Part shown: positions 24,205 to 47,049 of the stretch, in pieces
Layout of the letters: each line of letters starts with the position of its first letter
Numbering within the stretch: the first letter of the stretch is position 1
Source: Bdellovibrionales bacterium
Lineage (GTDB): Bacteria; Bdellovibrionota; Bdellovibrionia; Bdellovibrionales; UBA1609
Length of the DNA: 64,000 nucleotides
Assembly: GCA_027317865.1 (NCBI GenBank)
Contig: DAHVQG010000002.1
Location: 249,700 to 313,699 of the forward strand
Direction of reading: 5' to 3'
Notes under the pieces: generated by a model
The model's database searches: none
Told to the model about the DNA's origin: nothing
What the model saw: only the letters and a program-made list of their open reading frames with translations
Translations under genes and position numbers: made by a program

Positions 24205-24954
24205 CTATCGGAGAAGAAATGTGGCATTTTTTCGATTTGTAAACGGCAGAGGTGATGCACCACTTCGAACAACATCCATCGTGCATGTGTAGATTTTGGG
24301 TTCAAACTGGGATTCGAATTCAGAGTCGACTCTACGGATAGATTTCTCAATTCTGGCGTCACCGCAAACATATAATGCCGCGACGATATCGTGTGAAAAG
24401 TAATACTCCGTAAGTTTTTTGCCATACCGGACGCCGCTCTTTTCAGATGCCTCAAATTCAAGGGCCAAGCGAAACGATTTTTCCTGGCCCCTCAGTACCA
24501 AGACTGCATCCGCGTTAACAGTGCCAAACGGCCCATACTCCAAAGAAGTAGTCAGTTCTCCGCAAGCTTGGAGCATATTTTCTGATATGTAATCTTCAAA
24601 CATAGCCGATTTTTCTAGCCGCGTTCGAATATCAGTCAGGGCAACGTCATGCAAATAGGAGTCGCTTTTGAAGTAAGCTTGCGTTATTTCAAATCGATAA
24701 TCTTTGCGAACTACGTTGAATCCTTTTTCGGTTAGACCATATATCAGTTCAAGTGAGCCGCCGCTAGGTATGCCGATTTTTGACAGATATCCATCCCGCA
24801 CAAGCCGCCCCAACCGGTATTGAACGGTTGGCCGTTTTGTCGACTCGAATAATCGGCACCGTATTTGGTCGTAGCTAATGGCCCGCTGCTCGAACGCAAA
24901 TTTCATAACCTTCCGGTCGCGCTCGGTAATCTGGACAGGACCCGTGCGCCGCAT
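24205..24954 (-). CDS. Replication-relaxation (Replic_Relax-like) protein, putative relaxase
   Basis: N-terminal wHTH (ITERDRKV..RLGRLVRDGYL..YGLTEKG); HDVAL, ADAVL, ALEFEAS..K PD-(D/E)xK-type motifs; next to coupling ATPase. Confidence 0.7.
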   Translation of the reverse strand: MRRTGPVQITERDRKVMKFAFEQRAISYDQIRCRLFESTKRPTVQYRLGRLVRDGYLSKIGIPSGGSLELIYGLTEKGFNVVRKDYRFEITQAYFKSDSYLHDVALTDIRTRLEKSAMFEDYISENMLQACGELTTSLEYGPFGTVNADAVLVLRGQEKSFRLALEFEASEKSGVRYGKKLTEYYFSHDIVAALYVCGDARIEKSIRRVDSEFESQFEPKIYTCTMDVVRSGASPLPFTNRKNATFLLR

Positions 24955-24955
24955 T

Positions 24956-26461
24956 TTACTTAGCCCGACCCTTCACGGTATTTTTACTGAACTCATTCGC
25001 GTCTTGAGATTTGGCTGCACTGAGTTCAAGCATTGGTTGAAAATTCCAGCTTTTGTCGTCAGAAATCGTTTTCGCTATCGCCTGAATTTTTAGCTCCAGT
25101 GCCTCTTCCGAAAGAAATGGCGCCTGAACTTCGACAAATTTGTTCCCGCCGGCCCAAACAGCGCGACCTTTGATGTCGGGTAGCGAATACGCTTTGATAT
25201 TTCCAAGCGCCGTGGTGGACCCTGCGAGCGTTGACATTTTAAACACCATTCGACCAGATAGATTTTCAAGCGTTTTGGTATCAAGCGACTCTTTAATAGG
25301 TTTTTGAGTGGCGATTACCAAATGAATTGCTGCCGCCCTTGATAATTTCGCAAGTTCATCTGTCAATTCGCGAGCGCGCGCCACGAGATCAGCTTTGGAT
25401 TTACTGACCGTCGTTTTACCGAATAAGACCGAGGCTTCATCGATTGCGACCACGATAAGATCCTTTTTATGGATCGATGGCTCAATTTTTTTGACGCCTT
25501 TTTCTTCCATAAATTGAAAACGCCTTTTCATTTCGTCTCGAACTGCGGTGAGCATTTTTACAGCGCCAACTTCGTCTTTGGCGATTCTCACGTTCGGCAA
25601 ATGGCCGAATTCTTTGAGTTCGACTCCGTGTTTTAGGTCGATCAAGTAAAACTGAATGTGCCGCCACTGACCAAGGCAAACGAGCAGCTGACATTCAAAC
25701 ACGCTTTTGCCGCCGCCGGACGTGCCGGCAATTAACAAGTGCGGTAGGTCGCGAATGTCTTGCGTTACTGTCCCGTTGACAGAAGCTCCAACCAAAAATG
25801 TAAACGGCGATTTGAGATCCTTTTCCAGGTCTTCATACAAGAACATTTTTCCGAGTTCCCGCTTGCAGAGCGAGATCTCAATAGTTCTGCGATCAGGCGA
25901 TGGTTCAATTTGTTCGACCATTTGACCAAATGCATATTCGAGATCGGATTTTTTACCTTCAAATCGATCCACCCCCACACCGATTGATCGAACAATAACT
26001 TTGCAGCGTTCGTCGTCCTTTGGTACGACCGCGAGAATTTTTGGCTGCTCACCCTTTGCGTTGCTCAAGCCAACGGAGTTGAAATTATTTTGAAGTTTTC
26101 TTCTTTCCACGAACGCTCTCAAGCCAAGTGCGCAAAGACTTGTGTATGTGACACCTGTGAGTAGTACCAAAAAGTGCGACCATTTTGGCCAGTGTTTTAG
26201 CCATGCCGTAAACTTCGCTGTAAATAGATTTGGCCAAATCCAGTGCAGTGCCTTCAAATATGCATAATCGCCATACGTCGCTGCAAATATGAGAAGAACA
26301 AGTGACGTTGAAAATATAATGAATTCGCTCGAACGAAACTTTATCCGCTTAAGACCCGCCCACGCCATTGAACCCGTCAGCGCAATGACAATGCCGACAG
26401 CGACCACAAACCGTTCAAGACTGTCGTTTTTGGCAACTATACCGTTATTCGGTGGTTTCAT
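24956..26461 (-). CDS. FtsK/SpoIIIE-family ATPase, putative coupling protein
   Basis: N-terminal TMs; PHLLIAGTSGGGKS, IDLK.GVE, EM.RR, VVAIDEA, RAAAIHLVIATQKP. Confidence 0.85.
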   Translation of the reverse strand: MKPPNNGIVAKNDSLERFVVAVGIVIALTGSMAWAGLKRIKFRSSEFIIFSTSLVLLIFAATYGDYAYLKALHWIWPNLFTAKFTAWLKHWPKWSHFLVLLTGVTYTSLCALGLRAFVERRKLQNNFNSVGLSNAKGEQPKILAVVPKDDERCKVIVRSIGVGVDRFEGKKSDLEYAFGQMVEQIEPSPDRRTIEISLCKRELGKMFLYEDLEKDLKSPFTFLVGASVNGTVTQDIRDLPHLLIAGTSGGGKSVFECQLLVCLGQWRHIQFYLIDLKHGVELKEFGHLPNVRIAKDEVGAVKMLTAVRDEMKRRFQFMEEKGVKKIEPSIHKKDLIVVAIDEASVLFGKTTVSKSKADLVARARELTDELAKLSRAAAIHLVIATQKPIKESLDTKTLENLSGRMVFKMSTLAGSTTALGNIKAYSLPDIKGRAVWAGGNKFVEVQAPFLSEEALELKIQAIAKTISDDKSWNFQPMLELSAAKSQDANEFSKNTVKGRAK

Positions 26462-27377
26462 AGTAACTACTCGATAGTGAAATGATGAGATCCGATCCGG
26501 AGTCGATCGTTACGTAGCTCGGAGTTTGGCCGAGTTTATTTGCCTGCTCATTTGCTTCCATCTGCGCCACATTCGATAGCCCATTGTAAAAGCCGTTTCT
26601 AAGATTCGCCTTTGGCGTTGGCAAGATCGACTGCCCCAGAGATTCCTTTTGTATCATGACGTCAGACATTCCGCTGATCATCGAAAGACCGATGACAGAT
26701 GCCATCCGATCGCCCGTATTGCCGTGATAATCACCAATCACGCCCGGCCGATAGTCCTTGGAGCTTAAGGCCCGCGCACTGATTTTGAATTCATTGCCGT
26801 CCGGTAAAAGCCCATGATCGAAATTGATGTAGACGCGATCGCCGTGACCGGGGTAGCTCGACTGCCCAAATAGAATAGTCTGCGGCGGAAGGCTACCGCC
26901 GCCGAATTTGTGAGCGGCGCCATATGGTAGAACAACTTGCACGCCCTCCGGGTAGCGGGTGTCAATGCCCGAAGCGAACTTCCCAATAAAATTTGATCCA
27001 ATCGGTAATTTTTCGTATGACTCGCCAGGAGTAATCACTTGTTTTGCCCGGTAGCGCAGGTGTAACGGCTGAAGCATTGTCCTAGGCGATTTAGGTGCAT
27101 GGCTCAATACGCCGCCGACTTTAGCAACTGTAGCAGCCAGTTGCGCGGCATTGGTTCCGGCGCCTTTTTGAATCAACGACACGTTACTCTGCCTAATCGC
27201 GGTCGCAACGGGTGACTTTCGAATCGAAGGCAGAAGTGAGATAACAATACCGAGAACGGTCAATGCAAACGCCGCAAGGATCGTATGTTTTCGGTTCAAT
27301 ACTTTTTTGCCGCCCTCATTCCTAAAGAAAAAATCCCGACTACGCTCACGAATATTTATTTTCAAAAATACCGCCAA
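26445..27377 (-). CDS. VirB10/TrbI-like T4SS core protein
   Basis: Single TM, then beta-rich domain (LPIGSNFIG, RVYINF..GL, GVIG) and helical tip; T4SS context. Confidence 0.65.
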   Translation of the reverse strand: MAVFLKINIRERSRDFFFRNEGGKKVLNRKHTILAAFALTVLGIVISLLPSIRKSPVATAIRQSNVSLIQKGAGTNAAQLAATVAKVGGVLSHAPKSPRTMLQPLHLRYRAKQVITPGESYEKLPIGSNFIGKFASGIDTRYPEGVQVVLPYGAAHKFGGGSLPPQTILFGQSSYPGHGDRVYINFDHGLLPDGNEFKISARALSSKDYRPGVIGDYHGNTGDRMASVIGLSMISGMSDVMIQKESLGQSILPTPKANLRNGFYNGLSNVAQMEANEQANKLGQTPSYVTIDSGSDLIISLSSSYYETTE

Positions 27378-28087
27378 GGGATACTTCGCTCCGCGAACGT
27401 ATTCATGAAGCGCAACTTGAGCGTGAGGTTCGTCCTTTGCTTTCTTGTAAACAGCAGTCGAACTCGCGCCGACTGCCCATGCTGTACGATGCCGCTTTGA
27501 ACGACAAACTCTTGAAGCGGTAACCGATTTGAGTGATAGCTGAGATCAACTTGAAGACCCGACAGCGATACCGCATTCGTCGAGATGTTCCTAACGGTGA
27601 GGTCTATGAGGTAAAAGGATCGGCCACGAAACTGCTCGATCCGATCAACCTTTACGCCGAGCAGGTGACCCACACGAAATGCGACATGGGGGTTAGAAAC
27701 TACATGAATCGGCGAAACCAAAATGGCCGGCTTCATAGGGTCCGATGAATTTTTGTCCTCCCAATACACATGGACAAGATCGTCATATCTCTCACTCGAT
27801 GGACGTAGTAAAAATCCATAAGTGTGTTTTGCACTATACACAAATAAGTTTGTTGCGACGGCACCGCGCGGTTGTACGGCGATGTCTTTGTCTGTGAACT
27901 CGATGCCGTAATAATTCGAATTACCGAGAACCACTTTTTTTGGTTTTTCTTGAAACCTCAATACGGTCGAACGGCCCATTCGTAAATAGATCGGGATCAT
28001 TTTTGACCCGTTTGCTTCGACAGTTCGCACATTACCGGCATACGCATGGCATCCGAGAAATAATGCCAACCAAATTAGCCACCGCAA
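27362..28087 (-). CDS. VirB9-like secreted T4SS protein
   Basis: Signal peptide; IYLRMGRSTVLRF..P..VVLG, TNLFV pattern; position. Confidence 0.55.
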   Translation of the reverse strand: MRWLIWLALFLGCHAYAGNVRTVEANGSKMIPIYLRMGRSTVLRFQEKPKKVVLGNSNYYGIEFTDKDIAVQPRGAVATNLFVYSAKHTYGFLLRPSSERYDDLVHVYWEDKNSSDPMKPAILVSPIHVVSNPHVAFRVGHLLGVKVDRIEQFRGRSFYLIDLTVRNISTNAVSLSGLQVDLSYHSNRLPLQEFVVQSGIVQHGQSARVRLLFTRKQRTNLTLKLRFMNTFAERSIPWRYF

Positions 28088-28684
28088 TTATTTTCCTTGG
28101 TAAACAATTTCGCCGGCTACGTAAAGACCGAGAGGATTCCACTGAGTGCGATCGCCTTGTACGAGTTGAAATGACACTTGAGTGGGGACGACAAGCGGAA
28201 CATTATCAACTCTCAATACAACATCAAACGTTGCAACCGTACTATCTTTTGTGATTTGAATGCCAAGTCCGGCCACACTTTGTTTAACCTTCTTACCCAT
28301 AAAATCCTTGTCTTTTTCTTGACTGAGTTCGGCGATTTCTTGGGCACGGAAATTATCCGTCACAAGCGGTGCAATATCTTCGCCGATGTGATTCGGGTCG
28401 AGTGTATCCCACTGGTATGCAAGTCCCACATACTCTTCAACAAAACGTTTTATGTTGTCTTCACCGAGCGGAACCGGCCGTCTAGTACCTTGAACAAATG
28501 TGTAATCGGCGCCTTGCTGAATCGCGACAATGGGATTTCGATTTGACAGCGTCAGACATAAGATAACGAGGAGCGCGCACAAACCCGCGACGACTGCGCC
28601 CCCAACTTTGTACAAAAATAAAATTCGATTGAGTGCCACCCATTGGTTAATGGGTTTGCCATTTTCAATTGCTTTGAGTAACAA
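28088..28684 (-). CDS. VirB8-like protein
   Basis: One TM; IKRFVEEYV, C-terminal NPLGLYV. Confidence 0.7.
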   Translation of the reverse strand: MLLKAIENGKPINQWVALNRILFLYKVGGAVVAGLCALLVILCLTLSNRNPIVAIQQGADYTFVQGTRRPVPLGEDNIKRFVEEYVGLAYQWDTLDPNHIGEDIAPLVTDNFRAQEIAELSQEKDKDFMGKKVKQSVAGLGIQITKDSTVATFDVVLRVDNVPLVVPTQVSFQLVQGDRTQWNPLGLYVAGEIVYQGK

Positions 28685-28685
28685 A

Positions 28686-29633
28686 TTATCTCCTTCTTTT
28701 GTTTATATTCTTAGCTTCTTGAGGTAGCCCGACTTGGGAGTACCAGTTTGAAAAATTCCTGACATGTGGCTTCATTCGGTCAGCCATGATCTGTGCGCGT
28801 CCACTGATGGGGTTAGTCAAAGGTTTAGCCGCAAAGTTCGATGCTGCAAGAGTCCCACCCACGGCCTTTCGACCCAAAACCCTTGATGAAAGCATCGCCG
28901 CCTTCGTCGCCATGAGTCCGGGTGCAGCCGCAAGGCCAGCCGCCGCCGATTGCAATCCATCGCCCAGAAGCGATTTTGCAAATAGAGGAATGAGAAGCAT
29001 CGAAACACCGATCAGTAAGTTCATCACCATCGACAAAATGTAGTCGTCAACTCCAACGACCTTTGGATTCATTGCAAGCTTTAATAAAAGTGCGCCGAGG
29101 AGGGTCCATAAAACCTTCCATGTGGCGACACTCACCAGACCCCGATATAAATTGCCCGTGATGCGAGCCGTGGACTTGGGCACGTAGCAAAGAATCATAA
29201 GCGGCGCGCACACAAACAATATTGCCCAAACAAAATTCATGAGCGTAATCGACGCGAAAAATCCGATATAAGCGATGAGGTAAGCGCCAATTGCAAAAAT
29301 ATAAATAACGCTTGCTCTAAGATCAAATAGGCTACCTGACTTACCCTGTGAGTTCGGGCCAAGGTGCTTGATTGCGGTCCATAAAGCGTGCGTGTGGTCG
29401 ATGTGTGCCGTTATTTGATCACCCAGCATACCGATCGTGTTAACTACAGTCGCAAAAGAAACGAGAAGCAGGATCGAAATAACCGTTCGCTTGAGTATAT
29501 CGTTGACGTTGGGCGAGCTTTTTAAGAATTCAAAAACTATCAAAAGCGTGACCACAGCCGGGAGCAGTATCCAATAAACTTGAACCATCTCGCCGTGGAG
29601 ACTTTTCGCATATACGAATAAATTTTCAAACAT
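28686..29633 (-). CDS. VirB6-like polytopic membrane protein
   Basis: Multiple TMs, APLMI motif, Ala/Gly-rich tail; position. Confidence 0.65.
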   Translation of the reverse strand: MFENLFVYAKSLHGEMVQVYWILLPAVVTLLIVFEFLKSSPNVNDILKRTVISILLLVSFATVVNTIGMLGDQITAHIDHTHALWTAIKHLGPNSQGKSGSLFDLRASVIYIFAIGAYLIAYIGFFASITLMNFVWAILFVCAPLMILCYVPKSTARITGNLYRGLVSVATWKVLWTLLGALLLKLAMNPKVVGVDDYILSMVMNLLIGVSMLLIPLFAKSLLGDGLQSAAAGLAAAPGLMATKAAMLSSRVLGRKAVGGTLAASNFAAKPLTNPISGRAQIMADRMKPHVRNFSNWYSQVGLPQEAKNINKRRR

Positions 29634-29635
29634 TT

Positions 29636-30322
29636 CTAAAATCTCGATAAGCTTGTATCAAGCTTGAAATTCTGAAATCCACCGTCGAGATCGCGATCCA
29701 CTTTTTGAAAATCAGTTACCTGATCCTTGTCGGCTTTGTTATTCATGGCCAGCTGTTCGCTCTCAAGTTTCAGCATTTGAGTATTGAGGCGAATAAGCTG
29801 GCTGAGACTTCGCAAAATCTCAGCACTCGTTTCTGCCTGCATCCGAGCGGCACCCTTGGGTGAAGCCTGGCGGGCTTGTACCAGTATCTTTATCGAATTT
29901 GCTTCTTGTTCCGACGAATACTGCTTAAATGAGTCGACCATGCGTAGTGACTCAGCGACACTTTGATCGTTAAGAAGCTCTAATGCCGCAGCTCTACTCT
30001 TCGGCACTCGACCATAAATCGACGAGATCATGTCAACGGCTTGTTTGAAATTTTGTAGATCAGCCAATATTCGATCATCATGCACTGGAAGAGTCGAGAG
30101 AAGTCCGATCGAATTTTCGAGACCGGAATTTATAACGTGCATGTAATCGGACATGTCACGCCCTTGCTGGACCATTGTTTCGAATTCCTGGTAGTCTTGG
30201 ATATTCTGAGCCAGTATCTTTAATAAGATCGGAATGTCACCTCCGAAGAAATCCGCCCTGGCGGGCGGACTTATGAATAATAGCGTAAACGCTGTAACTG
30301 CCGTCCAGCGAAGTATTTTAAT
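29636..30322 (-). CDS. VirB5/TrbJ-like secreted helical protein, probable ATT start
   Basis: Frame extends 49 codons upstream of ATG 30175 to ATT 30322 after SD AAAGGAGGT, giving signal peptide (M)KILRWTAVTAFTLLFISPPARA-DFFGGD. Confidence 0.6.
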   Translation of the reverse strand: MKILRWTAVTAFTLLFISPPARADFFGGDIPILLKILAQNIQDYQEFETMVQQGRDMSDYMHVINSGLENSIGLLSTLPVHDDRILADLQNFKQAVDMISSIYGRVPKSRAAALELLNDQSVAESLRMVDSFKQYSSEQEANSIKILVQARQASPKGAARMQAETSAEILRSLSQLIRLNTQMLKLESEQLAMNNKADKDQVTDFQKVDRDLDGGFQNFKLDTSLSRF

Positions 30323-30346
30323 ACGACCTCCTTTGAATCAGTTCGA

Positions 30347-32788
30347 TTAAGCGCTCTTCTTCTGTTCATCTTTTTCACTCGCCAGCTTTTTTAGAATCTC
30401 GATTTTTTTCAGCTCCGGATGCCTTCTTTCAAGCTCTTGAATTCGCGCTTTATCGCCGGCGTCGCTGGTGCAGATCCAGTATGAAAGTGGCTCGGAGGTC
30501 AACCGTAAAACGATTTGATTTTCATCCTGTAGAAAAAAGAATTCACTATACGCACCTTTTACGACTTCTAAGCTCTTTATCGCTTCAACCTGCGCGTCGG
30601 TGAAATCAAATGTTTCTTGAAAATCCTTCCAGTCAATTTTTCGTTGCTTTAGAATAATGACGCTTGTCGAGTTTGGCATAAGCGCATCGCGGATCTCGGG
30701 ATCAGCCAAAAAATCGCGATAGTTCTGGCTAATGCACCAAATACCGGCGTTGTACTTTCGCCACGTTCTGTAGCAGGTAATAACAAACTGCTTTGATAGC
30801 TCGCCGCTTTTAAAAAACCGCTCGGCCTCGTCACAAATGAGTAGATATGGTCGCGCGAGATCCGATGCCGCTGCATCCTGAATGTACGATGTCAAAAGTA
30901 ATAGCAAAATGTCTTTAAGGTCCGGATGGTTCGTGAGTCCATTTACCTCGATGGTGACAAGATCCTTTGACAAATTGATTGTACTTGGTCCATCGAGCAT
31001 TCTACCGTAAGCCGTTTCACCACACCACGAAAATAGAATCTGCGCGAATTTTTGCATTTCTGGATCGTTATGCTTTTCTAGTGCGGTTTTCAGATCCGAC
31101 AGAAATGGAACACGCGCGGCCGACCCTTTGTATACGGCAAAAATCGCTTCTTCGAGCATGGCCTTTTCACGTTTTCCTAAAGATTTTTGGTTCGGGTCTT
31201 TAAGAATAAGTTCTAAAATTGCGAGTATCAATTTAACCCGCGCCGGAGATGGCGTGGCTTCGCCGTTTGGAAGATCAAACACATTAATCCGAATGCCGCT
31301 TTCTAAGTTCAAGTCGACAAATTCGCCGTCTAATACTTCGAGCAATTTTTGCGAACTTGCGCCATTATCGATCCAAAAAAGCCGGGGCGTCGGTTTTTGA
31401 CCGTAAAACATGAGCATCAGCTGCGAGATCGTGAAGCTCTTGCCGCTGCCTGTTCCGCCGAAAATCAGACCGTTCCACGCGGGCAATTCCTGCGCAAACG
31501 GTGAAAACGAAAATAGACCGCCGTCACGGTTTGGGATGAGGCACACTGGGCTTTGGTTCCCGCGCCAGTTACCATAGAGCGGGAGAAGATGTGCAACATT
31601 ACTACTCTTCATTTTGTAGTGGCGAAGGCCGCTACACGCACCGGGTAGGGCGTCGATAAAAACGTCAAAACCTGGCAGCGTTTCTACGATCCCTTCAGAT
31701 TGACCCATCTGTCGAAACGCTTTTAGAACTTCGTCCGATTTCTCTTCGAGCTCCTCTTGCGATTTAGCCCAAATGATTACGGTAAAATCCATCGATACGA
31801 GTCGCTCACTTCCGTCGAGTAATTCACGTAGCAAGGATTCGATATCGTTTAGTTTTGACTCGCTTTCGAGGTCAGAAACATTTTCTGATCCGCCGGCCAT
31901 CGAATTGGCCACGCGACGCTTGAGTTCTAGGCGCTGCCGTTCGCGTATTTGATCCAAAATTTTTATATTCTGGCTCATCCAAAAGTGAAACGGTAACGAC
32001 AAAGTCAAATTGTTAATTATAGAGCTATATGTCGAACCTTCAGGAAGCGTTTTCAAGGTGACTGTGCGGAAAAAATAATCGCCAACTCGCAAATGACCAC
32101 GATGGACTTCAATATCTGAAAGTGTCAACTGTTCAATTATTGACGGAGCGAGTGGGTCCCCGGATTCACGCATCGACGGTAATGGGTAGTGTTCTGCGCG
32201 ATCAAGGTTTAGGTATTGAAATACAAGACTAAACCACTCCTCGGGCTCAAGTTTTGCCGGCTTTAGCCCCGAATGTATCAGCGAAGATTCAATTTGCTTT
32301 AACGCTCGATCGAATTTTTCTCTATGAGCTGTATATTCTGACTCTGCAATGGGTTCGTATTTTTTTTGCGACTCCCAAAAACGGCGCTTTTTATAAGAAT
32401 ATGGTTTGCTTCGAATAAAAAGATAGAATTCCGGCACGAAGTAATTTTTTTGCGCTTCATTTCTCTTTAGAAACGATATCCGAGCCTCGGCAATTGGCCG
32501 ATAAATCTCTGGGGCTTCACTTGAAATCGCTGCATGTTCGGTGAGCAGGGCGCTTACATTTGGGGTCACGCGATAAAAGATCTGAAGCTTGAGCCCTTCT
32601 TCCGTACCAATTAACAGATTTTCGACTTTTCTTGTAAAGGTATTGATTTCGTCGGGTGTGCGGCACGAAATATCGACTCCTGTTAGCCGAAATGCACCGC
32701 CAAGTGAGCCGTCAGAATACACCATTAAATCTTGATCGAAGTGCCAAAACGGCAGGCGATCCGCGAGACCCGCAATATTATTTTTCAT
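30347..32788 (-). CDS. virB4: VirB4/TraC-family T4SS ATPase
   Basis: Walker A GGTGSGKS, IDNGAS, Walker B LICDEA, RKYNAG..ISQ; about 810 aa. Confidence 0.9.
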   Translation of the reverse strand: MKNNIAGLADRLPFWHFDQDLMVYSDGSLGGAFRLTGVDISCRTPDEINTFTRKVENLLIGTEEGLKLQIFYRVTPNVSALLTEHAAISSEAPEIYRPIAEARISFLKRNEAQKNYFVPEFYLFIRSKPYSYKKRRFWESQKKYEPIAESEYTAHREKFDRALKQIESSLIHSGLKPAKLEPEEWFSLVFQYLNLDRAEHYPLPSMRESGDPLAPSIIEQLTLSDIEVHRGHLRVGDYFFRTVTLKTLPEGSTYSSIINNLTLSLPFHFWMSQNIKILDQIRERQRLELKRRVANSMAGGSENVSDLESESKLNDIESLLRELLDGSERLVSMDFTVIIWAKSQEELEEKSDEVLKAFRQMGQSEGIVETLPGFDVFIDALPGACSGLRHYKMKSSNVAHLLPLYGNWRGNQSPVCLIPNRDGGLFSFSPFAQELPAWNGLIFGGTGSGKSFTISQLMLMFYGQKPTPRLFWIDNGASSQKLLEVLDGEFVDLNLESGIRINVFDLPNGEATPSPARVKLILAILELILKDPNQKSLGKREKAMLEEAIFAVYKGSAARVPFLSDLKTALEKHNDPEMQKFAQILFSWCGETAYGRMLDGPSTINLSKDLVTIEVNGLTNHPDLKDILLLLLTSYIQDAAASDLARPYLLICDEAERFFKSGELSKQFVITCYRTWRKYNAGIWCISQNYRDFLADPEIRDALMPNSTSVIILKQRKIDWKDFQETFDFTDAQVEAIKSLEVVKGAYSEFFFLQDENQIVLRLTSEPLSYWICTSDAGDKARIQELERRHPELKKIEILKKLASEKDEQKKSA

Positions 32789-33083
32789 AGATATTGGTTC
32801 GTAGCCTTTCTTGAAATTCAGGTTGCGCGCCTGCGGCATAATGGCCCGGCGTTAAGTAAAATCGCAACAGGTGGAGTAAAAATCCATCAGGTTTATTGCG
32901 CTTTCCTAGATATAGTACGAGCAGCATCGCAACTGGCACACATACGACAATCGGTAAAGGTAGGTGAAGAACATTGAGAATCGAGAGAGCAATCAAAGCC
33001 GCGATGAGATCGAGGGCCTCCATGCCCCCGATCTTCACTCTAACGTCAAGCCCACGGTGAACTGCGGACCTATTCAACTCCAC
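32778..33083 (-). CDS. VirB3-like membrane protein
   Basis: Two TMs, directly upstream of and overlapping virB4. Confidence 0.65.
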   Translation of the reverse strand: MELNRSAVHRGLDVRVKIGGMEALDLIAALIALSILNVLHLPLPIVVCVPVAMLLVLYLGKRNKPDGFLLHLLRFYLTPGHYAAGAQPEFQERLRTNIYEK

Positions 33084-33413
33084 CTAATAACCTCCGCCAA
33101 CAGCACCTTGCAGCCAGTGAATTATAATCGGCGCGAGACATCCGACGATGCATGCAATGATAATTAGTATCATTCGACCTTTTGCACCCTGATCACCAGA
33201 AACCGCAAGAATAGCGGCATAGACAAGGCCCAAGATAGAAATCGCTGGCAATACGACAGTGATGAGCTTGCCTGTTAAACCTGCAACACGCCCCGACAGT
33301 TCATCGGCGCCAACGCCGCCATAGCTTTGTGCGAATGCGAAATGCGGGTAAAGAGTCATCAAAGCAAATACGCCGATCAAAACGCACGCCAATGCAATAG
33401 TTGACTTTTTCAC
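33084..33413 (-). CDS. VirB2/TrbC-like pilin
   Basis: Signal ending AFA, then two hydrophobic helices. Confidence 0.7.
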   Translation of the reverse strand: MKKSTIALACVLIGVFALMTLYPHFAFAQSYGGVGADELSGRVAGLTGKLITVVLPAISILGLVYAAILAVSGDQGAKGRMILIIIACIVGCLAPIIIHWLQGAVGGGY

Positions 33414-33766
33414 TCGGTAACGTCTGGCACAAGAACGAGTCGCTGCGGCAAATATCGGCCAATCTTCATGTACACGTGACCATTCGTCTCGCCACTTGAA
33501 TATCCATTACCTACAGGTACACGATGAGAAAATTTACCGTTAATATCAACTGGCGAATGAACGACGTAATCGATTCGATCTTCATTGGCCTCTTTCGGTC
33601 GAAGATAGAGAATGGTGCGAGGCGCATCGAGCACAAGTCGATATTCGCCAAATTCAGGGACATAAAATGCAACACCGGCATTATATTTTTCGCCGCTTTC
33701 AGGGTCTAACCAAAACAACTCTTCTTTTTTTGTTTTTTTAATTTTTTCCATTTTAGAAATCCTCAA
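33410..33766 (-). CDS. Hypothetical protein in the tra operon
   Basis: Beta-rich ORF of about 115 aa, coupled to the pilin gene. Confidence 0.6.
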   Translation of the reverse strand: MRISKMEKIKKTKKEELFWLDPESGEKYNAGVAFYVPEFGEYRLVLDAPRTILYLRPKEANEDRIDYVVHSPVDINGKFSHRVPVGNGYSSGETNGHVYMKIGRYLPQRLVLVPDVTE

Positions 33767-33810: not shown

Positions 33811-34152
33811 TTACGCCGCGACGAGTTCCTCTCCTGAATCTTTTCTCAGGGCTGAAACCAGTTCACTTCGCAAATTATCGAGTGCATGGCTAAAAATCTT
33901 TATTGTTAAATCGATCGGCAGTTCAATTTGTGCGGCGATTGAAGAAAACGACAAGCCCTCCCAGAATCTCAAATAAACAACCAAACGTTCTTCGCGAGAC
34001 AGTTTGGCGACACGGTCGCGCACGAGTGCGGCCTGGCGGTCTTTTCGTTGGTCGTAGCGCCAATGTTTTTTTCGTTCATAATCAGCGAAAACTCTATTAT
34101 CCATCTCACGCTCAATCATTTTTGGACTCCAATATTGAAGTTTCGTGTTCAC
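33811..34152 (-). CDS. Sigma-70 region-4-like HTH protein
   Basis: LSREERLVVYLRFWEGLSFSSIAAQIELP...ALDNLR. Confidence 0.75.
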   Translation of the reverse strand: MNTKLQYWSPKMIEREMDNRVFADYERKKHWRYDQRKDRQAALVRDRVAKLSREERLVVYLRFWEGLSFSSIAAQIELPIDLTIKIFSHALDNLRSELVSALRKDSGEELVAA

Positions 34153-34280
34153 CAGAACCGTCCGTATAACCCGTATTTGATTCGAGCTTCATCGCGTGCC
34201 TTTCTTAATCGTTCCTCATCAACTTTTATTTCAAAAAGTATATAGTGGACCCGCTTAAAAATTTGGCGGAGCTTATCCAT
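34149..34280 (-). CDS. 43-aa small protein (below ORF-track cutoff)
   Basis: MDKLRQIFKRVHYILFEIKVDEERLRKARDEARIKYGLYGRFW; SD AAGAGG; overlaps both neighbours. Confidence 0.6.
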   Translation of the reverse strand: MDKLRQIFKRVHYILFEIKVDEERLRKARDEARIKYGLYGRFW

Positions 34281-34752
34281 TGGATGCCTCTTTTGAAAAT
34301 GGGATTACATTCGAGGTTTGCCTCTCGACAGTTTCATCGGGGCGCCGAAAACTAACGACGTTTTCAATGCTGACAACGCGAGCTTCTGGCTTGCCATTAC
34401 CGCCGTTTTCTAGAAATTCCTGACACTCGATACAAAAAGTGCAGTCCGGCTGTGCATCGAGACGCCTGGGATCAATTTCTTCTTCGCATCCTTCACACAC
34501 ACCGAAAATCCCCATGTCGATTCGTCTGAGTGCTCGCGCCAATTTGCCAGCTTGCCTTTCGATATGTCGAAACATACCCATTCGTTGATTGCGATCGCTC
34601 AGTTCTTTTGCTTCATCGAGTGGGTCGGGTAAAATTAATGGGTCTTCGACAATCGCGCGCAATTCGGATTCGAGACCCTCCCACATTTGGTGGAGGGCGC
34701 GCTGTCGCTCCAAGATATTGTCTTTGAATTTTTGTAGCTGTTCGTTTGTCAC
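34273..34752 (-). CDS. TraR/DksA C4 Zn-finger protein
   Basis: DPLDEA coiled-coil tip; CEGC...RRL.A.P....CIEC; likely GTG start 34752 after GAGGAGG. Confidence 0.88.
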   Translation of the reverse strand: MTNEQLQKFKDNILERQRALHQMWEGLESELRAIVEDPLILPDPLDEAKELSDRNQRMGMFRHIERQAGKLARALRRIDMGIFGVCEGCEEEIDPRRLDAQPDCTFCIECQEFLENGGNGKPEARVVSIENVVSFRRPDETVERQTSNVIPFSKEASNG

Positions 34753-34813: not shown

Positions 34814-34830
34814 GTCAGCGATCGTGCCAA
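34814..34830 (-). promoter_or_regulatory. Putative sigma54 promoter of the tra operon
   Basis: TTGGCACGATCGCTGAC: perfect -24 element; GG-N10-GA with non-consensus -12. Confidence 0.6.
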
Positions 34831-34897
34831 CAGACGAAAAGTAATTGGATTGATTAAGAAAAAATGGATTTTGCTCGAACGTGGCCGAACTTAAAAA

Positions 34898-34973
34898 TGA
34901 ACGCAGTTACGTCCACGAATTTTGAATTTCAATGTGTTATCGCAAACATGATGAAAAGACGTATCTACGTCCA
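34898..34973. promoter_or_regulatory. Two palindromic enhancer-like sites
   Basis: TGAACGCA-GT-TACGTCCA (34898-34915) and AAGACGTA-TC-TACGTCCA (34956-34973). Confidence 0.7.
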
Positions 34974-41126: not shown

Positions 41127-42578
41127 TTAGGCCGACGGCAGCGATTCGTTTCCATGTCTCCCCACGCCGACGCCGACGTCATCGAGACTGACATCGTGGT
41201 CGTTCAGCTCCGAACGAAGACCGTGCCTATCAATTAAAGTGTGAAGCGTCGACGGGCTTATACCCATCCGCGCGGCAGTCTGGCGAAGCGTTGGGCCGAG
41301 GCTAATTTGATACCGAATGAATTCGCGTTCCGCGTTCTGTTGCTGCGTCTTAAATCGTTTATGGCTGGCGTCCAGTACCGGGTTCGCTTTACCGTCAAGG
41401 CTCTGCATTTTCTTGTCGAGGTGATGAAATTCAATTGTATCACTTCGAGTGTTCGTAAGGAGCGCTGACACGTACCCATCCAATTCGCCAACATTTCCGG
41501 GCCACGGATATTTTTCAAGCTGTCGCATGGCCGCTTTACGGAATTCTTTTCGCTCGCCGGTCTCCTTGAAATGTTTGTCGCAAAGATGAAGCACGATCGG
41601 CTCTATATCTTCAGTTCGCTCGCGCAAAGGTGGAATTTCGATGCAAAGAAATTTGATTCTATAATAAAGGTCGGGCAAAAATGATTTGTTGGCTACGCGA
41701 GCCTCAAGGTCAGGATGCGAAGCCACGATCAGCCTAAAATCGACATCAACCTCTTGTTGAGCGCCCACTCGTCGAACTTTCTTCTCGCGAATTACACGCA
41801 GTAGTTTCGCTTGAGCCTGCGGAGCCATGTGATGGATCTCATCCAGAAACACGGTGCCACCTCGCGCGGCTTCGAAAATTCCAACTTTCCGTGCTATAGC
41901 GCCCGTGAACGCGCCTTTCTCATGCCCAAACAGCTCTGACTCAAACAAATTGCCCTCATCCGAGACAGTACAACTGAAGGTAAAAAATTTCTCAGCAGGA
42001 CCATTATGAATCATGCGCGCAAAGATCTCTTTGCCGACCCCAGTTTCTCCGAGAAGGAGCACCGTCTTTTTGGATTGCCGGTAATCCAACGCGTTTGAGA
42101 TACCCTCTGCAAGGGCGCGCGATCTCCCAGCGAGATTTTGCCCTGTAATGATCTTGGTAGCTTCATCTACAGACAGCGTCGGTTTAACCTTTCGCACTTT
42201 TTCATATAGCTCACAGGCTTTACCCAGAGATTCTTTGAGAACGTCGTTGTTTTCGGTGCGTTCAATATAGTTTAGGGCTCCAGCCCGAATAGTGGCCACA
42301 GCGTCATCTTTCGAACCTTCGTAAGCGGTGTAAATAATAGTTATGATTTCGCCGTTTAGTTTTCTTATTTCATCCGCCGTTTGCGGGCCATTTTTTCCGG
42401 GCATACGAAAGTCAATGACCGCTACCGAATATTCTTTAGATGCTGCACGAATACAGTCGATAGCCTCCTCGCCGCTTGTGACGGTGTCGATATTATAACC
42501 CCACCGCTGAATCAAACTTCGTATATCGATTAGGTTGTCTTCGTCATCGTCTACAATGAGAATGTTATGTTTGAGCAT
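41127..42578 (-). CDS. Sigma54-dependent response regulator (REC-AAA+-HTH, NtrC/AtoC family)
   Basis: [46 protein letters not shown]-terminal HTH; start ATG 42578 after GAGG. Confidence 0.93.
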
Positions 42579-44019
42579 GCGCCACCTCGTATCGTTCGGT
42601 TCCTCGGTCGATGTTTGCCGGGCAAAACGAAATAAAAAACTCTGTTCCGCGTCCCACTTCTGACGAAAAGCTAATCGTTGCATTAAAGGAGTCACAAATA
42701 CCTTTTACGACCCCAAGGCCGATGCCGGTGCCTCGAAGAGGTTTTGTTGTAAAATCAACTTCGAAAATTCTTTCGCGATTTTCAATCGGGATACCGCATC
42801 CGCAATCTTTTACAATCATCGTCGGTCTGCCGTCCGCATTCGTAATCCGGATCTCGATTGTTTTCTCCTCGCACTCCGCCATTGCTGCAATTGAATTTTG
42901 CACAATATTTTCGAGTACCCTGTAAAACTCGATTTTGTTTATGTTCGCTGGCGGGACAATTCCGTCTTGGAAAAAATCGATTTGCACGTTATTCCGTAAA
43001 AATTCATGATCGTCGCGCAAACTCGAAATGTAATTACTGACTTCTTCCTTCAATAAAATGACGCTATCGCGACGATCACTAGACGCTCGTTTAATCAATG
43101 GGTAACGAACGAGTCGGATGATGTCACCCAATTGGCTAATAGAGCGTTTAACACGCGCGATTTCTTCGGTATCGTAGCGACCCGTTAATTCAATGGTGCT
43201 GACCATGTTCTCGACTTGCATAGCAAGACGCGAATGGGGTGTTTTTAGGTCGTGGCCAATCTCACGAAGAAGGCCGAAATGGGCCAAAGCGCGAGCTTCA
43301 TTTGCGGCAACTTCTTGAAGTCGTCTTATTTCTAAATGGAGGCCGTCTACTGCTTCTTTCATCGGCGCTAAGTCTGTAAACGGAGCAATCGACCGATTCT
43401 CAATGCGCCTACTTGGCGCATCCTTGAGATGTTTTGCCCATTCCTGAAAGAGTGAAGACAATTTTCGGGTTGCATTGCCGATTGCACTGAATATCCCGAT
43501 CGTGTTGCCGACAAATGCACCAAACAATACAAAGAGAAGGCAGAATAAAATGTTGTAATCGAGTGCGGGCTTGAGTGTAAGGTCAAGGTACCCGAATAGA
43601 TTTTTGTGTCCTGGCTCGTCAAAATATAGTGGGTATAACATGCTCACGCTACGAAAGTGCGGCGACCAACATGACACGTTGGGGCTGAAGCAGTTGGGTC
43701 GGACGGGCGACTTTGGATCAACCGAATAGATTTCTTTTAATTTTGCATTTCGAACGACTGCGGATTCTCCAGCTTTTAACCCAAGCGCTGTTTGCATTTG
43801 AATTTCGGCGTCGCGCACGTCTCCTTGTAGAATCATGGGCCGGTATGCAGTTGCAGCCGCGCGTGCAACGGTCAAAAGCTGTCGCTCCGATACATTTTTT
43901 TGAGCGTAAAATAAAATTGGAGCGGCGATTGCGGTTGCAACTACGAATGAGACAAGCGACCATCGTATCGTTTGCCGTCGAAAATATGATTCTAAAGATG
44001 TGCCTTTTTCGTCGCGCAT
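42565..44019 (-). CDS. Membrane sensor histidine kinase
   Basis: Two TMs around a periplasmic domain; GHDLKTP, NIVQNS, DCGCGI, FTTK, GTGIGL. Confidence 0.92.
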   Translation of the reverse strand: MRDEKGTSLESYFRRQTIRWSLVSFVVATAIAAPILFYAQKNVSERQLLTVARAAATAYRPMILQGDVRDAEIQMQTALGLKAGESAVVRNAKLKEIYSVDPKSPVRPNCFSPNVSCWSPHFRSVSMLYPLYFDEPGHKNLFGYLDLTLKPALDYNILFCLLFVLFGAFVGNTIGIFSAIGNATRKLSSLFQEWAKHLKDAPSRRIENRSIAPFTDLAPMKEAVDGLHLEIRRLQEVAANEARALAHFGLLREIGHDLKTPHSRLAMQVENMVSTIELTGRYDTEEIARVKRSISQLGDIIRLVRYPLIKRASSDRRDSVILLKEEVSNYISSLRDDHEFLRNNVQIDFFQDGIVPPANINKIEFYRVLENIVQNSIAAMAECEEKTIEIRITNADGRPTMIVKDCGCGIPIENRERIFEVDFTTKPLRGTGIGLGVVKGICDSFNATISFSSEVGRGTEFFISFCPANIDRGTERYEVAHAQT

Positions 44020-44024
44020 TTTTC

Positions 44025-45485
44025 CTACTTAAAACGAATTTTTGACCAAGTAACCGATTCATCCGATAGGGGCACTTTTGAAAAATCTAAGCCGTCGCGG
44101 CCGATGCCGACAGTAGAAAGATGCATCAGCGGGAGAACATATCCATCCCTCACGGCTTCGGCGACAATTCTTCTCATTGCGGCCACCCGCTGCACTGGAT
44201 CAGTCATGCGTCGAGCGGCATCAAGCAATTTTACACAGTTGATAGTCCCAGATGGAACGACTGGTGTCGTTCCTTCGAAGTAGAAAGACATAATCCCTTC
44301 GGGATCTGGATCAGCAATCCCATATGTGCCCGCATAAAGATCGAAGTTGCCGACCTCGCGCCGCTGAAAAGCTTCCTGAAGTGGTAACGATATAAAATTC
44401 GCCTCTATCCCCAATTTTTTGAGCGCTATCTCAATATTGTGTTTGAGATGAGGCGGCACTCTCGCCGGGCTCATCAAAATATCCAATTTCTTTTTGAACG
44501 ATTCACCCGCCTCACCATCTTTTGGCTGCTGATAATTTAAATCGTATAGCTGGTAGCCTTTAGGAAACAGCTGATGGGCGACTGTGAAACCTGAAAGTCC
44601 TTCGGTCAGCGTACTACGATCGAGGTGCGCATTGAGAAACTGAAGTAATGCGTAGCCCTGGCTATTTCTCATCCGCTTGCCAAGTTCAAACAGAAAGACT
44701 TTGTCGATCGGCCGCCGCCATACTTGATAACCGCTAGATTCATAGCTGTGAGATAAGTCGCGAGAGAGGAGTGACGAAGTTTCGATAAAATTTGGCCATC
44801 TGTCATTTAACAGCACTGATTGAGAATCCATGGTCAGACTTGGACGCCGAATGATCACCTCTTCAGCCACGCCGTCCGAAAAATTGTGCCAATTCGGATT
44901 GCGTTTCAATATCAACTCTTCATGAGACCCTGAAGATAAATAAAATGCGCCCGTACTTACCGAAAGATTAATTTCACCATTAGGCTGCACTTTCAAAATA
45001 CCGTAATTTGGCTCAGTGAGTTTCTGGAGAAAAGTGCTTTGAGCAGCAGGCATCTTTAAATAAAAAGTGATGGTCGTCTGATTAGGGCATTCGATTCTCT
45101 CCAGCATGTTGGCGAGGCTTCTCATGTCTTCCGGATATTTTTTTAAATCGCGCTCAAAACTTCGCTTAATTTCTTCACTAGTTATAGGAGAACCGTCAGA
45201 CCATTTGGCATTTGGGCGCAACGTGAAGCTGTAGGCATTCTCAGCCGAAATTTTCCACGTTGCAGCAAGGCCCGAGGTCAATTGCTTTGCCGGGCTCCAT
45301 TCAACCAACGTGCTGGCCAGAGCATACGAAAGATCCATATCTGGAATGATCACAATTTTTGCCGGGTCAACGGGGTAGTTAAACGGCAGGTATGTTCTGA
45401 TCTCTTTCATTGGTCTCTCCGGGGTTTTAGTGACCGCCTCACTTCGAATCGCAATAATACTCAATAGCAATATTAAAATTTTCAT
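44025..45485 (-). CDS. Family-5 (OppA/DppA-like) periplasmic binding protein with no linked permease or ATPase
   Basis: Signal peptide; GLA..W, FTLRPNAKWSDGSPITSEEI..SF, STGAFYL, L.RNPNW. Confidence 0.85.
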   Translation of the reverse strand: MKILILLLSIIAIRSEAVTKTPERPMKEIRTYLPFNYPVDPAKIVIIPDMDLSYALASTLVEWSPAKQLTSGLAATWKISAENAYSFTLRPNAKWSDGSPITSEEIKRSFERDLKKYPEDMRSLANMLERIECPNQTTITFYLKMPAAQSTFLQKLTEPNYGILKVQPNGEINLSVSTGAFYLSSGSHEELILKRNPNWHNFSDGVAEEVIIRRPSLTMDSQSVLLNDRWPNFIETSSLLSRDLSHSYESSGYQVWRRPIDKVFLFELGKRMRNSQGYALLQFLNAHLDRSTLTEGLSGFTVAHQLFPKGYQLYDLNYQQPKDGEAGESFKKKLDILMSPARVPPHLKHNIEIALKKLGIEANFISLPLQEAFQRREVGNFDLYAGTYGIADPDPEGIMSFYFEGTTPVVPSGTINCVKLLDAARRMTDPVQRVAAMRRIVAEAVRDGYVLPLMHLSTVGIGRDGLDFSKVPLSDESVTWSKIRFK

Positions 45486-45540: not shown

Positions 45541-45690
45541 TTATCCGCAAGACGCGCCAGATGCGCCAAATTGTACTATTCCGCCACAAGGCTCGGCACC
45601 TTGGGCTGACGTCATCAAGTGTCGAGCACCAAATGAAAAATAGGTGCCCGCGATTAACATCGCGAACATCAGATTTTTTAGTTTGGACAT
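45541..45690 (-). CDS. 49-aa putative RiPP precursor / signalling peptide
   Basis: SD AGGAG before ATG 45690; MSKLKNLMFAMLIAGTYFSFGARHLMTSAQGAEPCGGIVQFGASGASCG; starts 19 nt after the YcaO stop. Confidence 0.8.
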   Translation of the reverse strand: MSKLKNLMFAMLIAGTYFSFGARHLMTSAQGAEPCGGIVQFGASGASCG

Positions 45691-45709: not shown

Positions 45710-46765
45710 CTACGGTACACAATGAGGCAAAGAGCAGAGTCTATTTGTTTGCCGCACATTCCAAAGTCGACGCCGATTCAACAGGCCAATCCTGTCTGCA
45801 TCGGCCGTTCGACCAAAAAATAATTTTTGTACTTCATTACTTGAGCAGTATCCGACTGAAATCGGCCCTGAAATAACCTGATGAAATTCGGCGTTCCGAG
45901 TGCGCCGAGAAAACTCATTGTACTGATTACGCCACGTTTTATTAAGTTCACTATACGAAACGACCGGCCCGAATATCCACTCCGGTACTGGAATGTGATA
46001 CGCGTAGACCATTGCGTGGTCGATAGGCGTGAAGCTACTAGCGGCAATGTCGCGTGCTAGGTTTCGAGATGACTCCTTAAATTCGCCGGCCATTTCAACT
46101 TCACCAATGCGACAGGTTTCAGCCAACGCTTTATAAACGGCCTCACCCAAGGTCGCGGCGCTCGCTTGCGACATTAGACCGTGACCGTCAGACGAGAGAA
46201 GCAATGTCATTACGGCCGGCACAACGCCTTCAGTGGTCGCAAAAACACAAAGTCTCTTGAATCGAGGATGTAGTGCGAGTTCGTTGTGGCCCCAATCGCG
46301 CAACCATTCAGGAGCAGATTCTAGATCAACACTTAAAAAAGATTTTTCGCAAAGCCAGTGAGCCAAAATGGCGTCTCGCTCGTACAACTCTTCAACGGCC
46401 GATTTTTGTACCCGTACTGGGTCGACGTGTGCCGCCCAACCGTTTGACGTCAATATTTTTGGATCGCGGGCTTTCATCATTTTGTAAACTGCGCGCTCAA
46501 CGCCTTCGACGATACATTTTTGATTGGCTACGAGCTGACTTTCAGATTCTCCGTAGCCGTAACCCAAGTCGTCACCCGCTCGAACTTCGCTCACAAATGA
46601 AAATTTCGAAAATCGTAAGCCCGGCGACCTTTGAGATCTGAACAACTTTTTTACTTTTATATCGATGATCTCGCCGCTAGAAAGGGTTGCTTTGACACCG
46701 TCTAGGTACACGGCGATTTTACCGCTATTCATAATCGCTCGAATTTCTGTCCGTACACTTCTCAT
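45710..46765 (-). CDS. YcaO-family protein (stand-alone)
   Basis: EGVER, TSNGWAAH, ELYERDA, ALAE motifs; C-terminal PHCVP resembling the YcaO PxPxP tail. Confidence 0.85.
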   Translation of the reverse strand: MRSVRTEIRAIMNSGKIAVYLDGVKATLSSGEIIDIKVKKLFRSQRSPGLRFSKFSFVSEVRAGDDLGYGYGESESQLVANQKCIVEGVERAVYKMMKARDPKILTSNGWAAHVDPVRVQKSAVEELYERDAILAHWLCEKSFLSVDLESAPEWLRDWGHNELALHPRFKRLCVFATTEGVVPAVMTLLLSSDGHGLMSQASAATLGEAVYKALAETCRIGEVEMAGEFKESSRNLARDIAASSFTPIDHAMVYAYHIPVPEWIFGPVVSYSELNKTWRNQYNEFSRRTRNAEFHQVISGPISVGYCSSNEVQKLFFGRTADADRIGLLNRRRLWNVRQTNRLCSLPHCVP

Positions 46766-46815: not shown

Positions 46816-46832
46816 AGCATTTCGCGGGCCAA
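46816..46832 (-). promoter_or_regulatory. Putative sigma54 promoter of the ycaO-peptide-SBP-HK-RR operon
   Basis: TTGGCCCGCGAAATGCT = GG-N10-GC, about 50 nt upstream of the ycaO ATG. Confidence 0.7.
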
Positions 46833-46930: not shown

Positions 46931-47049
46931 TGGACGTAGTTACGTCCACCTGGCGGGTGGCAAACCGGCGATTGTAGGTACAAGTCAGCAAAAGTATTCA
47001 ACTTATCTTATTTATTTGAATTTATGAGTGGTGGACGCGTTTACGTCCA
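46931..47049. promoter_or_regulatory. Two palindromic enhancer-like sites
   Basis: TGGACGTA-GT-TACGTCCA (46931-46948, perfect) and TGGACGCG-TT-TACGTCCA (47032-47049); further half-site at 47325-47332. Confidence 0.75.

Follow-up and report, generated by a model that had tools for sequence, protein, structure and literature searches.

Can the transfer genes of a conjugative element be placed under sigma-54, and if so, which activator would fire them and in response to which signal? This question is raised by a stretch of 64,000 nucleotides from a Bdellovibrionales bacterium (GenBank assembly GCA_027317865.1, contig DAHVQG010000002.1, positions 249,700 to 313,699), herein called the window, meaning the whole stretch of DNA that was analyzed. 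The assembly (2.65 Mb, G000) is that of a predatory-type bacterium of the Bdellovibrionota, and the window holds an integrative conjugative element (ICE) of at least 43 kb at the tmRNA gene. In the present study, the transfer (tra) operon of this element, which begins with traR/dksA, is considered to be probably under the control of a sigma-54 promoter at 34830-34814, driven by the enhancer-binding protein bEBP1 through a palindrome common to the tra operon and to a second operon, which contains ycaO, a candidate peptide gene and the gene for bEBP1 itself. The sequence supports the sigma-54 and enhancer anatomy of the tra promoter, and also the sharing with the ycaO-peptide operon of a palindrome that is unique to these two promoters in the genome. 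For the remaining parts, we infer that bEBP1 is the binder, that transcription fires from 34803 and that a YcaO-associated peptide is the signal.

The predicted promoter of the transfer operon and its palindromes

The predicted promoter of the transfer operon, TTGGCACGATCGCTGAC (34830-34814, minus strand), combines a -24 element with CTGA in the canonical -12 register. The -24 element, TTGGCACG (34830-34823), carries the GG doublet (34828/34827) within a TGGCAC-like box, and the -12 element reads CTGAC in the correct register, where the G is kept and the C is replaced by A (GA, 34816/34815); the predicted start of transcription is 34803. The -24 motif lies 77 nt ahead of the GTG start codon of traR/dksA (34752), which is located 62 nt past the end of TTGGCACGATCGCTGAC, behind the ribosome site GAGGAGGAG, and the leader is 51 nt long. 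An earlier note on this DNA, made from the letters alone, had described this motif, with a perfect -24 and GA at the -12, about 60 nt before traR/dksA, and both its coordinates and its strings were confirmed. No sigma-70-like promoter was detected in a scan of 34600-35300, the terminator-like calls of the promoter scan correspond to the palindrome itself (the proximal copy plus a T-run), and no Rfam match at E up to 1 was obtained in the same interval. No RNA run was found for 33000-37000, and four sequencing runs (3 of DNA and 1 metatranscriptome) yielded just short DNA contigs outside the promoter and no contig from RNA, which is evidence neither for nor against the promoter. Neither the G+C-rich stretch upstream nor the 5' leader folds more stably than shuffled sequences (z -0.56 and -1.03, respectively), and an A/T-rich tract at 34840-34890, between the proximal palindrome and the -24 element, could help looping.

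Upstream of this promoter, two copies of an 18-bp palindrome, TGGACGTANNTACGTCCA, which has the form TGGACGTA-N2-TACGTCCA, were observed. The proximal copy, TGAACGCAGTTACGTCCA (34898..34915), lies 95-112 bp upstream of 34803 with its centre at about -104, and the distal copy, AAGACGTATCTACGTCCA (34956..34973), lies 153-170 bp upstream with its centre at about -162; each has 2 mismatches to TGGACGTANNTACGTCCA, and the positions agree with the 95-170 bp given in the earlier note. The ycaO operon is preceded by a perfect copy, TGGACGTAGTTACGTCCA (46931..46948, centre at about -135 from the predicted ycaO start), and by a second copy with 2 mismatches, TGGACGCGTTTACGTCCA (47032..47049, centre at about -236), so that the claim of a palindrome common to both operons holds, with two of the four window copies at each promoter. 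At up to 3 mismatches, these 4 matches in the window compare with 0.14 expected, and none of 100 shuffles reached 4. The palindrome is not common in the rest of the chromosome: the whole 2.65-Mb genome contains exactly these 4 copies at up to 2 mismatches, together with 3 unrelated sites at 3 mismatches, and among 384 genomes of the order, 4 copies were found only in G000 and in G006, a genome of the same genus, while the rest have 0-3, similar to a reversed-pattern control (0-5). Because the genome holds merely four such copies, it is very unlikely that two copies with 2 or fewer mismatches came to lie beside TGGCACG by chance. A single half-site, TGGACGTA, is also present at 47325-47332 (minus strand), approximately 290 bp past the distal ycaO palindrome and within the 884-bp gap between ycaO and an RHS-repeat gene.

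The promoter of the ycaO operon, TGGCCCGCGAAATGCT (46816..46831, minus strand), is a predicted sigma-54 promoter with canonical spacing (GG-N10-GC) and a predicted start at about 46805. The earlier note had regarded the tra promoter as more degenerate than that of ycaO; this is correct for the -12 element (ATGCT at ycaO is nearer the consensus) and for the palindromes, but not for the -24 element, where TGGCAC at tra is nearer the consensus than TGGCCC at ycaO. It is conceivable, on weak grounds, that the tra promoter has a higher activation threshold, so that autoinduction would come first and transfer later.

The GA at the -12 element, which had appeared odd, is less so in the context of this genome. 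First, TGGCA[CT]-Nk-TTGC is enriched in G000 at k=5 alone, with 35 sites, of which 19 have a ribosome site and an open frame downstream, compared with 1-5 such sites at other spacings. Second, in a survey anchored on the -24 element alone (293 TGGCA[CT] sites in crudely defined intergenic DNA of G000), the canonical -12 register, compared with other offsets, contained not only more TGC (30 versus 2-8) but also more TGA (13 versus 3-10) and TGT (11 versus 0-6). Third, where a gene follows the site (85 cases), the -12 tetramer is TTGC (15), TTGA (5), TTGT (5), CTGC (4) and CTGA (1), the sole CTGA being the tra promoter. One of the TTGA sites is located directly ahead of an activator gene, and a Pfam family could be assigned to just 3 of 9 genes behind TTGA- or TTGT-type promoters, one of these 3 being an activator gene. 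G-A at -13/-12 is thus found repeatedly in G000 as a minor variant, and C at -15 also occurs.

The ycaO-peptide operon, its activator and a rearranged copy of the element

The operon behind the second promoter contains, all on the minus strand, a YcaO-domain protein (45710..46765; Pfam YcaO, 2.6e-8, with a TOMM SagD-family match below cut-off), a 49-aa open frame, hydrophobic at its N-terminus and rich in Cys and Gly in its tail, which is a candidate precursor peptide (45541..45690, between ycaO and the next gene), a family-5 (peptide/nickel type) solute-binding protein (44025..45485; SBP_bac_5, 3.8e-27, with NikA/OppA-like NCBIfam matches below cut-off), a sensor histidine kinase (42565..44019; HATPase_c, 5.7e-20) and bEBP1 (41127..42578), the proposed binder of the palindrome. 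bEBP1 has a REC domain (Response_reg, 3.1e-19), an AAA+ sigma-54 interaction domain with GAFTGA (Sigma54_activat, 3.1e-52; AAA_lid_14, 3.2e-16) and a C-terminal segment resembling a helix-turn-helix (HTH). Its nearest NCBIfam models are ZraR, NifA and NtrC, all under cut-off, and no equivalog cut-off was reached; from its domains, bEBP1 is classified as a response-regulator enhancer-binding protein of the NtrC type, whose HTH part is weaker than its REC and AAA+ parts. The solute-binding protein, the kinase and bEBP1 are encoded in one operon, and homology to Rap/Phr, PrgX or LuxR-type TraR was covered by the Pfam and NCBIfam scans.

Herein, we propose a circuit in which both promoters answer to this operon. 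The 49-aa peptide made beside YcaO would be the input, sensed via the solute-binding protein, upon which the kinase would phosphorylate the adjacent bEBP1. The activator would then assemble on the palindrome pairs, about 100-240 bp upstream of the two promoters, and would remodel and open the closed complexes of the sigma-54 holoenzyme. The ycaO promoter would drive its own operon, from ycaO through the peptide, solute-binding protein and kinase to bEBP1, resulting in positive feedback, and the second target promoter would drive the transfer operon, which begins with traR/dksA, continues with the type IV secretion genes and ends at the relaxase-like gene. The idea of a peptide input is drawn solely from gene neighbourhood, in the window and in two related loci (L064 and L065) described below.

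Which of the activators travels with the palindromes is indicated by G006, in which the chromosomal flanks are 77-83% identical to the window, compared with 99.1-99.98% for the element. G006 carries 20406-35146 of the window at 99.1% identity and 41003-51933 at 99.9% or more, the latter segment (with the ycaO operon) being inverted and directly adjoining 35146. In the regions of G006 that were fetched, no counterpart was found of 35147-41002, containing three genes without an assigned function, or of 51934-63235, which includes the gene for a second response regulator and activator, bEBP2 (52183-53685). The 390-bp promoter block up to 35146 is still joined to the transfer operon after this rearrangement, and all 4 palindromes are kept. 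An orthologue of bEBP2 was found nowhere in G006, where the best match is 38% identical. Since all four sites are kept in G006 without a bEBP2 orthologue, bEBP1 is singled out as the activator travelling with the palindromes, and bEBP2 was rejected as a co-binder. Of the two response regulators that the earlier note had put forward as candidate binders, one is retained in this comparison; that is, bEBP1, not bEBP2, is likely to bind the palindrome.

A related explanation is that the sigma-54 promoter is real but the tra operon is fired by another activator, either bEBP2 or one of 13 chromosomal activators, with bEBP1 serving its own operon only or the palindrome belonging to that other activator. 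There are 15 genes with a strong sigma-54-interaction domain in the genome, which we take to be many for 2.65 Mb, and bEBP2 has a clear Fis-type HTH (HTH_8, 2.4e-7), compared with the sub-threshold HTH of bEBP1. We nevertheless regard this explanation as distinctly unlikely: besides the absence of a bEBP2 orthologue from a genome that keeps all four palindromes, the best palindrome stands at the promoter of bEBP1's own operon, and in related elements an activator gene physically adjoins the transfer promoter.

The rearrangement also bears on whether the tra motifs are functional at all. They might be fortuitous or vestigial, with transcription of the operon coming as read-through from genes upstream or from a promoter that escaped detection, and with the weak palindromes as decaying duplicates or hairpins. 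The upstream genes are co-oriented with the tra operon in both G000 and G006, the proximal palindrome with its T-run scored as terminator-like, and both tra palindromes have 2 mismatches. This explanation is nonetheless highly improbable, given the small odds of a chance pair beside TGGCACG when the genome total is four, the retention of the promoter block with the operon through the rearrangement and the recurrence of the same design in related elements.

Several further observations concern the rearrangement itself. The three junctions, 35146|35147, 41002|41003 and 51933|51934, have an ATTC core beside G+C-rich stretches (CATATTCGCA|, TATATTCTTC| and AAGATTCACA|, written in one orientation), and a contig of sequencing run X4 also breaks, at 35140. 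These junctions may reflect site-specific shuffling of cargo modules. The palindromes were considered as recombination ends and rejected, as the junction at 35146 is about 170 bp off. The differences between G000 and G006 are unevenly placed, as 36 of the 128 in the transfer region fall within 28500-29500, over most of an unassigned 315-aa gene (28686-29633), and just 2 fall within 31500-35146.

Related elements in Bdellovibrionota

Is this promoter design confined to one element and its near-identical copy? A VirB4 scan of species-representative genomes revealed 20 loci, all in Bdellovibrionota, with 49-76% VirB4 identity, plus the G006 copy. The gene order about VirB4 is conserved across these loci, and an activator homologue is located within 7 kb upstream in 10 of the 20. 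The head of the operon could be assessed in 16 of the 20 loci (4 are cut too short), and a -24-type motif, TGGCA[CT] or CGGCAT, is present ahead of the first operon gene in 13 of these 16, at 42-80 nt from the start in the ten loci with the start placed (all of the 13 but L071, L072 and L074). By chance, TGGCA[CT] is expected in 3.4% of 70-nt windows, so that its presence in 8 of 13 lineages corresponds to a binomial tail of 2e-9, which is a guide only and not a probability, as the lineages are related. The spacing is canonical with TGC at the -12 in L058, L059, L067, L071, L072 and L073, and canonical with TGA in L055 (the G006 copy of the window promoter) and L068.

These loci bear on another explanation, in which the palindromes serve as operators for a regulator that is not an enhancer-binding protein, e.g. 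a repressor or the 113-aa protein with sigma-70 region 4/HTH encoded by the transfer operon, and TGGCACG is not a working promoter. An 18-bp palindrome would suit any dimeric HTH protein, one such protein is encoded by the transfer operon itself, and the -12 at tra is non-consensus. Yet the palindromes are placed 95-245 bp ahead of the start sites rather than across the core promoter, no sigma-70-like promoter was detected within 34600-35300, a -24 motif stands at the same place in 13 of the 16 assessable relatives, with activator genes close by, and the canonical GG-N10-GC is present at the ycaO promoter, which shares the palindrome. An operator of this kind is considered unlikely, and enhancer sites for bEBP1 remain the preferred reading of the palindromes.

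The relatives also have palindromes of their own. In several of them, paired palindromes of other sequence are located 80-180 bp upstream of the -24 element, as in L059, with two copies of CGTTCGGATTYCCGAACG at -97/-176, and in L068, with two copies of AGTAGCGCTWCTAT. Two copies each of AGTTTCAAAATTTTGAAACT or AGTTTGAAAATTTTCAAACT are present in L063 and L074, the two loci differing by a symmetric C/G swap in both copies. In an alignment of these two loci, which are 85% identical, conservation is concentrated in the promoter TGGCACAGATTGCTT and in the palindrome arms, which stand as islands in intervening DNA of about half identity, and the activators differ at several C-terminal HTH positions, in the recognition helix. 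In L064 and L065, an operon of ycaO, solute-binding protein, kinase and activator genes is divergent from the transfer operon, and all five TTCAG-N5-CTGAA palindromes of the 16-kb loci fall inside the 290 bp between the promoters of ycaO and of the transfer operon, the former being a canonical sigma-54 promoter (TGGCCC-N5-TTGCT). As judged from these sequences, L064 and L065 independently repeat the arrangement of one enhancer motif serving a peptide operon and a transfer operon. The earlier note had made conservation upstream of homologous tra operons a check on its reading; the architecture does recur, with other palindromes, but the exact palindrome is found in the G006 copy only.

L064 also has, between ycaO and the binding-protein gene, a longer frame (3395-3820, minus strand) of 141 aa from the first ATG, in which a signal-like segment and a tail containing Cys (…SEPSCWTAPF) are present, and no similarity to the 49-aa frame of the window is evident by eye. 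In L056, the transfer operon is traR-first and is accompanied by a kinase-activator pair, whose activator shares 49% identity with bEBP1. The tra and L056 leaders align without gaps from TGGCACG up to the start codon, 77 nt each, and both have TTGCA (34805-34809 in the window) immediately 5' of the predicted start and a GTGGGG-loop-CCCCAC hairpin ahead of the ribosome site (34766-34792, minus strand; for L056, 4839-4880), whose fold energy is unexceptional (z -1.03). A metagenome scan with the TraR/DksA protein gave 12 distant loci (33-57% local identity), none with adjoining type IV secretion genes. Among them, DksA/TraR-like genes of approximately 35% identity lie behind canonical sigma-54-type motifs, TGGTACAGGAGTTGCT and CGGTACAGGACTTGCT, in L079/L080 (about 1860-1880) and L083 (about 2405-2420), short contigs on which no transfer genes are present.

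Several observations weigh against control of the tra operon by bEBP1 and sigma-54. First, the tra promoter has 3 mismatches to TGGCACN5TTGCW, and matches to this consensus with up to 2 mismatches are not enriched in the window (27, versus 31.6 in shuffles); the core tra promoter alone is statistically unremarkable. The distance between the paired sites also differs, at 58 bp for tra and 101 bp for ycaO. Second, the C-terminal HTH of bEBP1 gives only sub-threshold Pfam matches (E about 0.02-0.05), and a GAFTGA motif or variant was not found by regular expression in the L073 homologue. A profile search of the assembly for the DNA-binding domain of rpoN (Sigma54_DBD) gave no match; the core-binding domain (Sigma54_CBD, 7.3e-59) is located at G000:C22:3-560, at the very start of contig C22, and all 3 of the congeners searched have the DNA-binding domain. 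Because the rpoN frame runs off the contig end, the host gene is truncated by the assembly rather than missing. Third, the exact palindrome is confined to G000 and its near-identical copy in G006, and as 34756-35146 contains just 1 difference between the two, G006 provides no test of selective constraint. Fourth, in five loci of 3 lineages the TTGC is located 1-2 bp nearer the -24 element than canonical, i.e. at N3 in L056 (4818-4895), L063 (5248) and L074 (5112) and at N4 in L064 and L065 (both 5269); between L063 and L074 this island is perfectly conserved. The -24/-12 spacing is regarded as obligatory for sigma-54, and work on nif and gln promoters indicates that an off-register TTGC should not be tolerated. 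Because the TTGC is off-register in these five loci and G000 is enriched at the canonical spacing only, part of the family evidence consists of the -24 element by itself. Finally, no -24-type motif is present ahead of the first gene in L060, L061 and L066 (3 of the 16 assessable loci), L061 and L066 have other regulators upstream, and no clear palindrome was found in L056, the closest relative with a traR-first operon.

The element, known systems and implications

The remaining genes of the window are consistent with a mobile element whose transfer is encoded in one operon. The first gene, traR/dksA (34273..34752, minus strand), encodes a 159-aa protein with a GTG start and a C4 zinc finger (Pfam zf-dskA_traR, 4.4e-11; NCBIfam DksA-like matches below cut-off), and the second (33811..34152, minus strand) encodes the 113-aa protein with the sigma-70 region 4 HTH (Sigma70_r4, 2.5e-6). 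The remaining operon (24205..33766, minus strand), which is syntenic with the 20 related loci, encodes a TrbC/VirB2-like pilin, VirB4/TraC, CagX/VirB9-like and TrbI/VirB10-like proteins, an FtsK-like coupling protein and a Replic_Relax/MobC-like protein. With a large serine recombinase beside the tmRNA gene, these proteins make up the ICE set, several of them below Pfam cut-offs; a recombinase, type IV secretion genes, a coupling protein, a relaxase-like gene, a chromosomal insertion and signs of horizontal movement were all found. The tmRNA gene (20442-20794, plus strand; tag GNTNFQLAA) is located at the left end of the element, overlaps the end of the serine recombinase frame and is likely to be the integration site; the right end lies beyond the end of the contig. 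Between the transfer and ycaO operons are three large genes of 683, 753 and 388 aa (35183-40821, minus strand) with no match in Pfam, NCBIfam or PADLOC, and across the 884-bp gap the RHS-repeat gene (47650-51663) is divergent from ycaO.

Two-component activators of the NtrC family act at sigma-54 promoters, e.g. NtrC at glnAp2, ZraR and AtoC. The present locus resembles this family in having a REC-AAA+(GAFTGA)-HTH regulator beside a kinase, paired palindromes approximately 100-200 bp upstream of a -24/-12 promoter and predicted autoregulation; it differs in its proposed target, the conjugative transfer genes of a mobile element, in having TGA at the -12 and in that bEBP1 has no named equivalog. 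The F-plasmid TraR is a DksA-like zinc-finger protein, and here too a gene for a DksA/TraR C4 zinc finger is located within the transfer operon, but as the first gene behind a putatively regulated promoter and with scores below the DksA and TraR model cut-offs. Control of conjugation is known via repressor switches, the SOS response, LuxR-type quorum sensing, and Rap/Phr or pheromone systems acting on sigma-70 promoters, and the Ti plasmids and enterococcal pheromone plasmids are examples of signal-controlled conjugation. Among ICEs, signal-controlled conjugation is described in a review for ICEBs1 (PhrI-RapI) and ICEMlSymR7A (TraR/QseM) (PMC5812530). As in all of these systems, an element-encoded signalling module would gate the transfer genes in the window; unlike them, where Rap/Phr, LuxR-type TraR or PrgX-type regulators act on sigma-70 promoters, the output here would be sigma-54 with an enhancer-binding protein. 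ICEMlSymR7A also has sigma-54-dependent genes and regulators, its NifA-RpoN regulon; sigma-54 controls cargo (nitrogen fixation) genes there, with transfer under LuxR-type quorum sensing (PMC3538637), whereas here the transfer genes themselves would be controlled. The LuxO quorum-sensing circuit of vibrios likewise passes a cell signal via a kinase to a sigma-54 activator (PMC4878744), and bEBP1 matches the LuxO model at 2e-61, far below cut-off. LuxO drives small RNAs, unlike the present proposal, in which the signal is a ribosomal peptide made beside a YcaO protein and sensed with a solute-binding protein.

No report of sigma-54 control of a transfer operon was found in the titles and abstracts of the literature searched (sigma-54 or RpoN with conjugation, ICE or type IV secretion; Bdellovibrio ICEs; YcaO quorum sensing), a search that did not cover subscription journals. 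In the matched passages of the ICE review, RpoN is confined to the title of a reference and sigma is mentioned for RpoS alone (PMC5812530), and in a survey of sigma-54 regulons, "conjug" and "type IV secretion" occur 0 times (PMC3162934). Each component proposed here is a textbook one, from the regulator of the NtrC type and its paired sites upstream to the -24/-12 promoter; what is new is the proposed target.

Without its activator, a sigma-54 promoter stays closed. Such activator-dependent opening suits a costly function like transfer, which should be kept off until signalled. Tentatively, and with less confidence than for the promoter in the window, we extend the proposal to a family of conjugative elements in Bdellovibrionota, in which a self-contained peptide quorum-sensing circuit might lead from a peptide secreted beside YcaO, through a family-5 binding protein and a kinase, to an enhancer-binding protein that uses a single palindrome set to activate both the operon encoding it and the sigma-54 promoter of the transfer operon, so that conjugation would be gated by element density via sigma-54, some members perhaps having a -24/-12 spacing 1-2 bp shorter. 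With two promoters, one palindrome and one activator, the proposed regulon is compact and testable and could be rebuilt in a laboratory host. Such a regulon would add to what is known of the functions of sigma-54 and of how mobile elements time their transfer, in a phylum whose mobile elements have been little studied.

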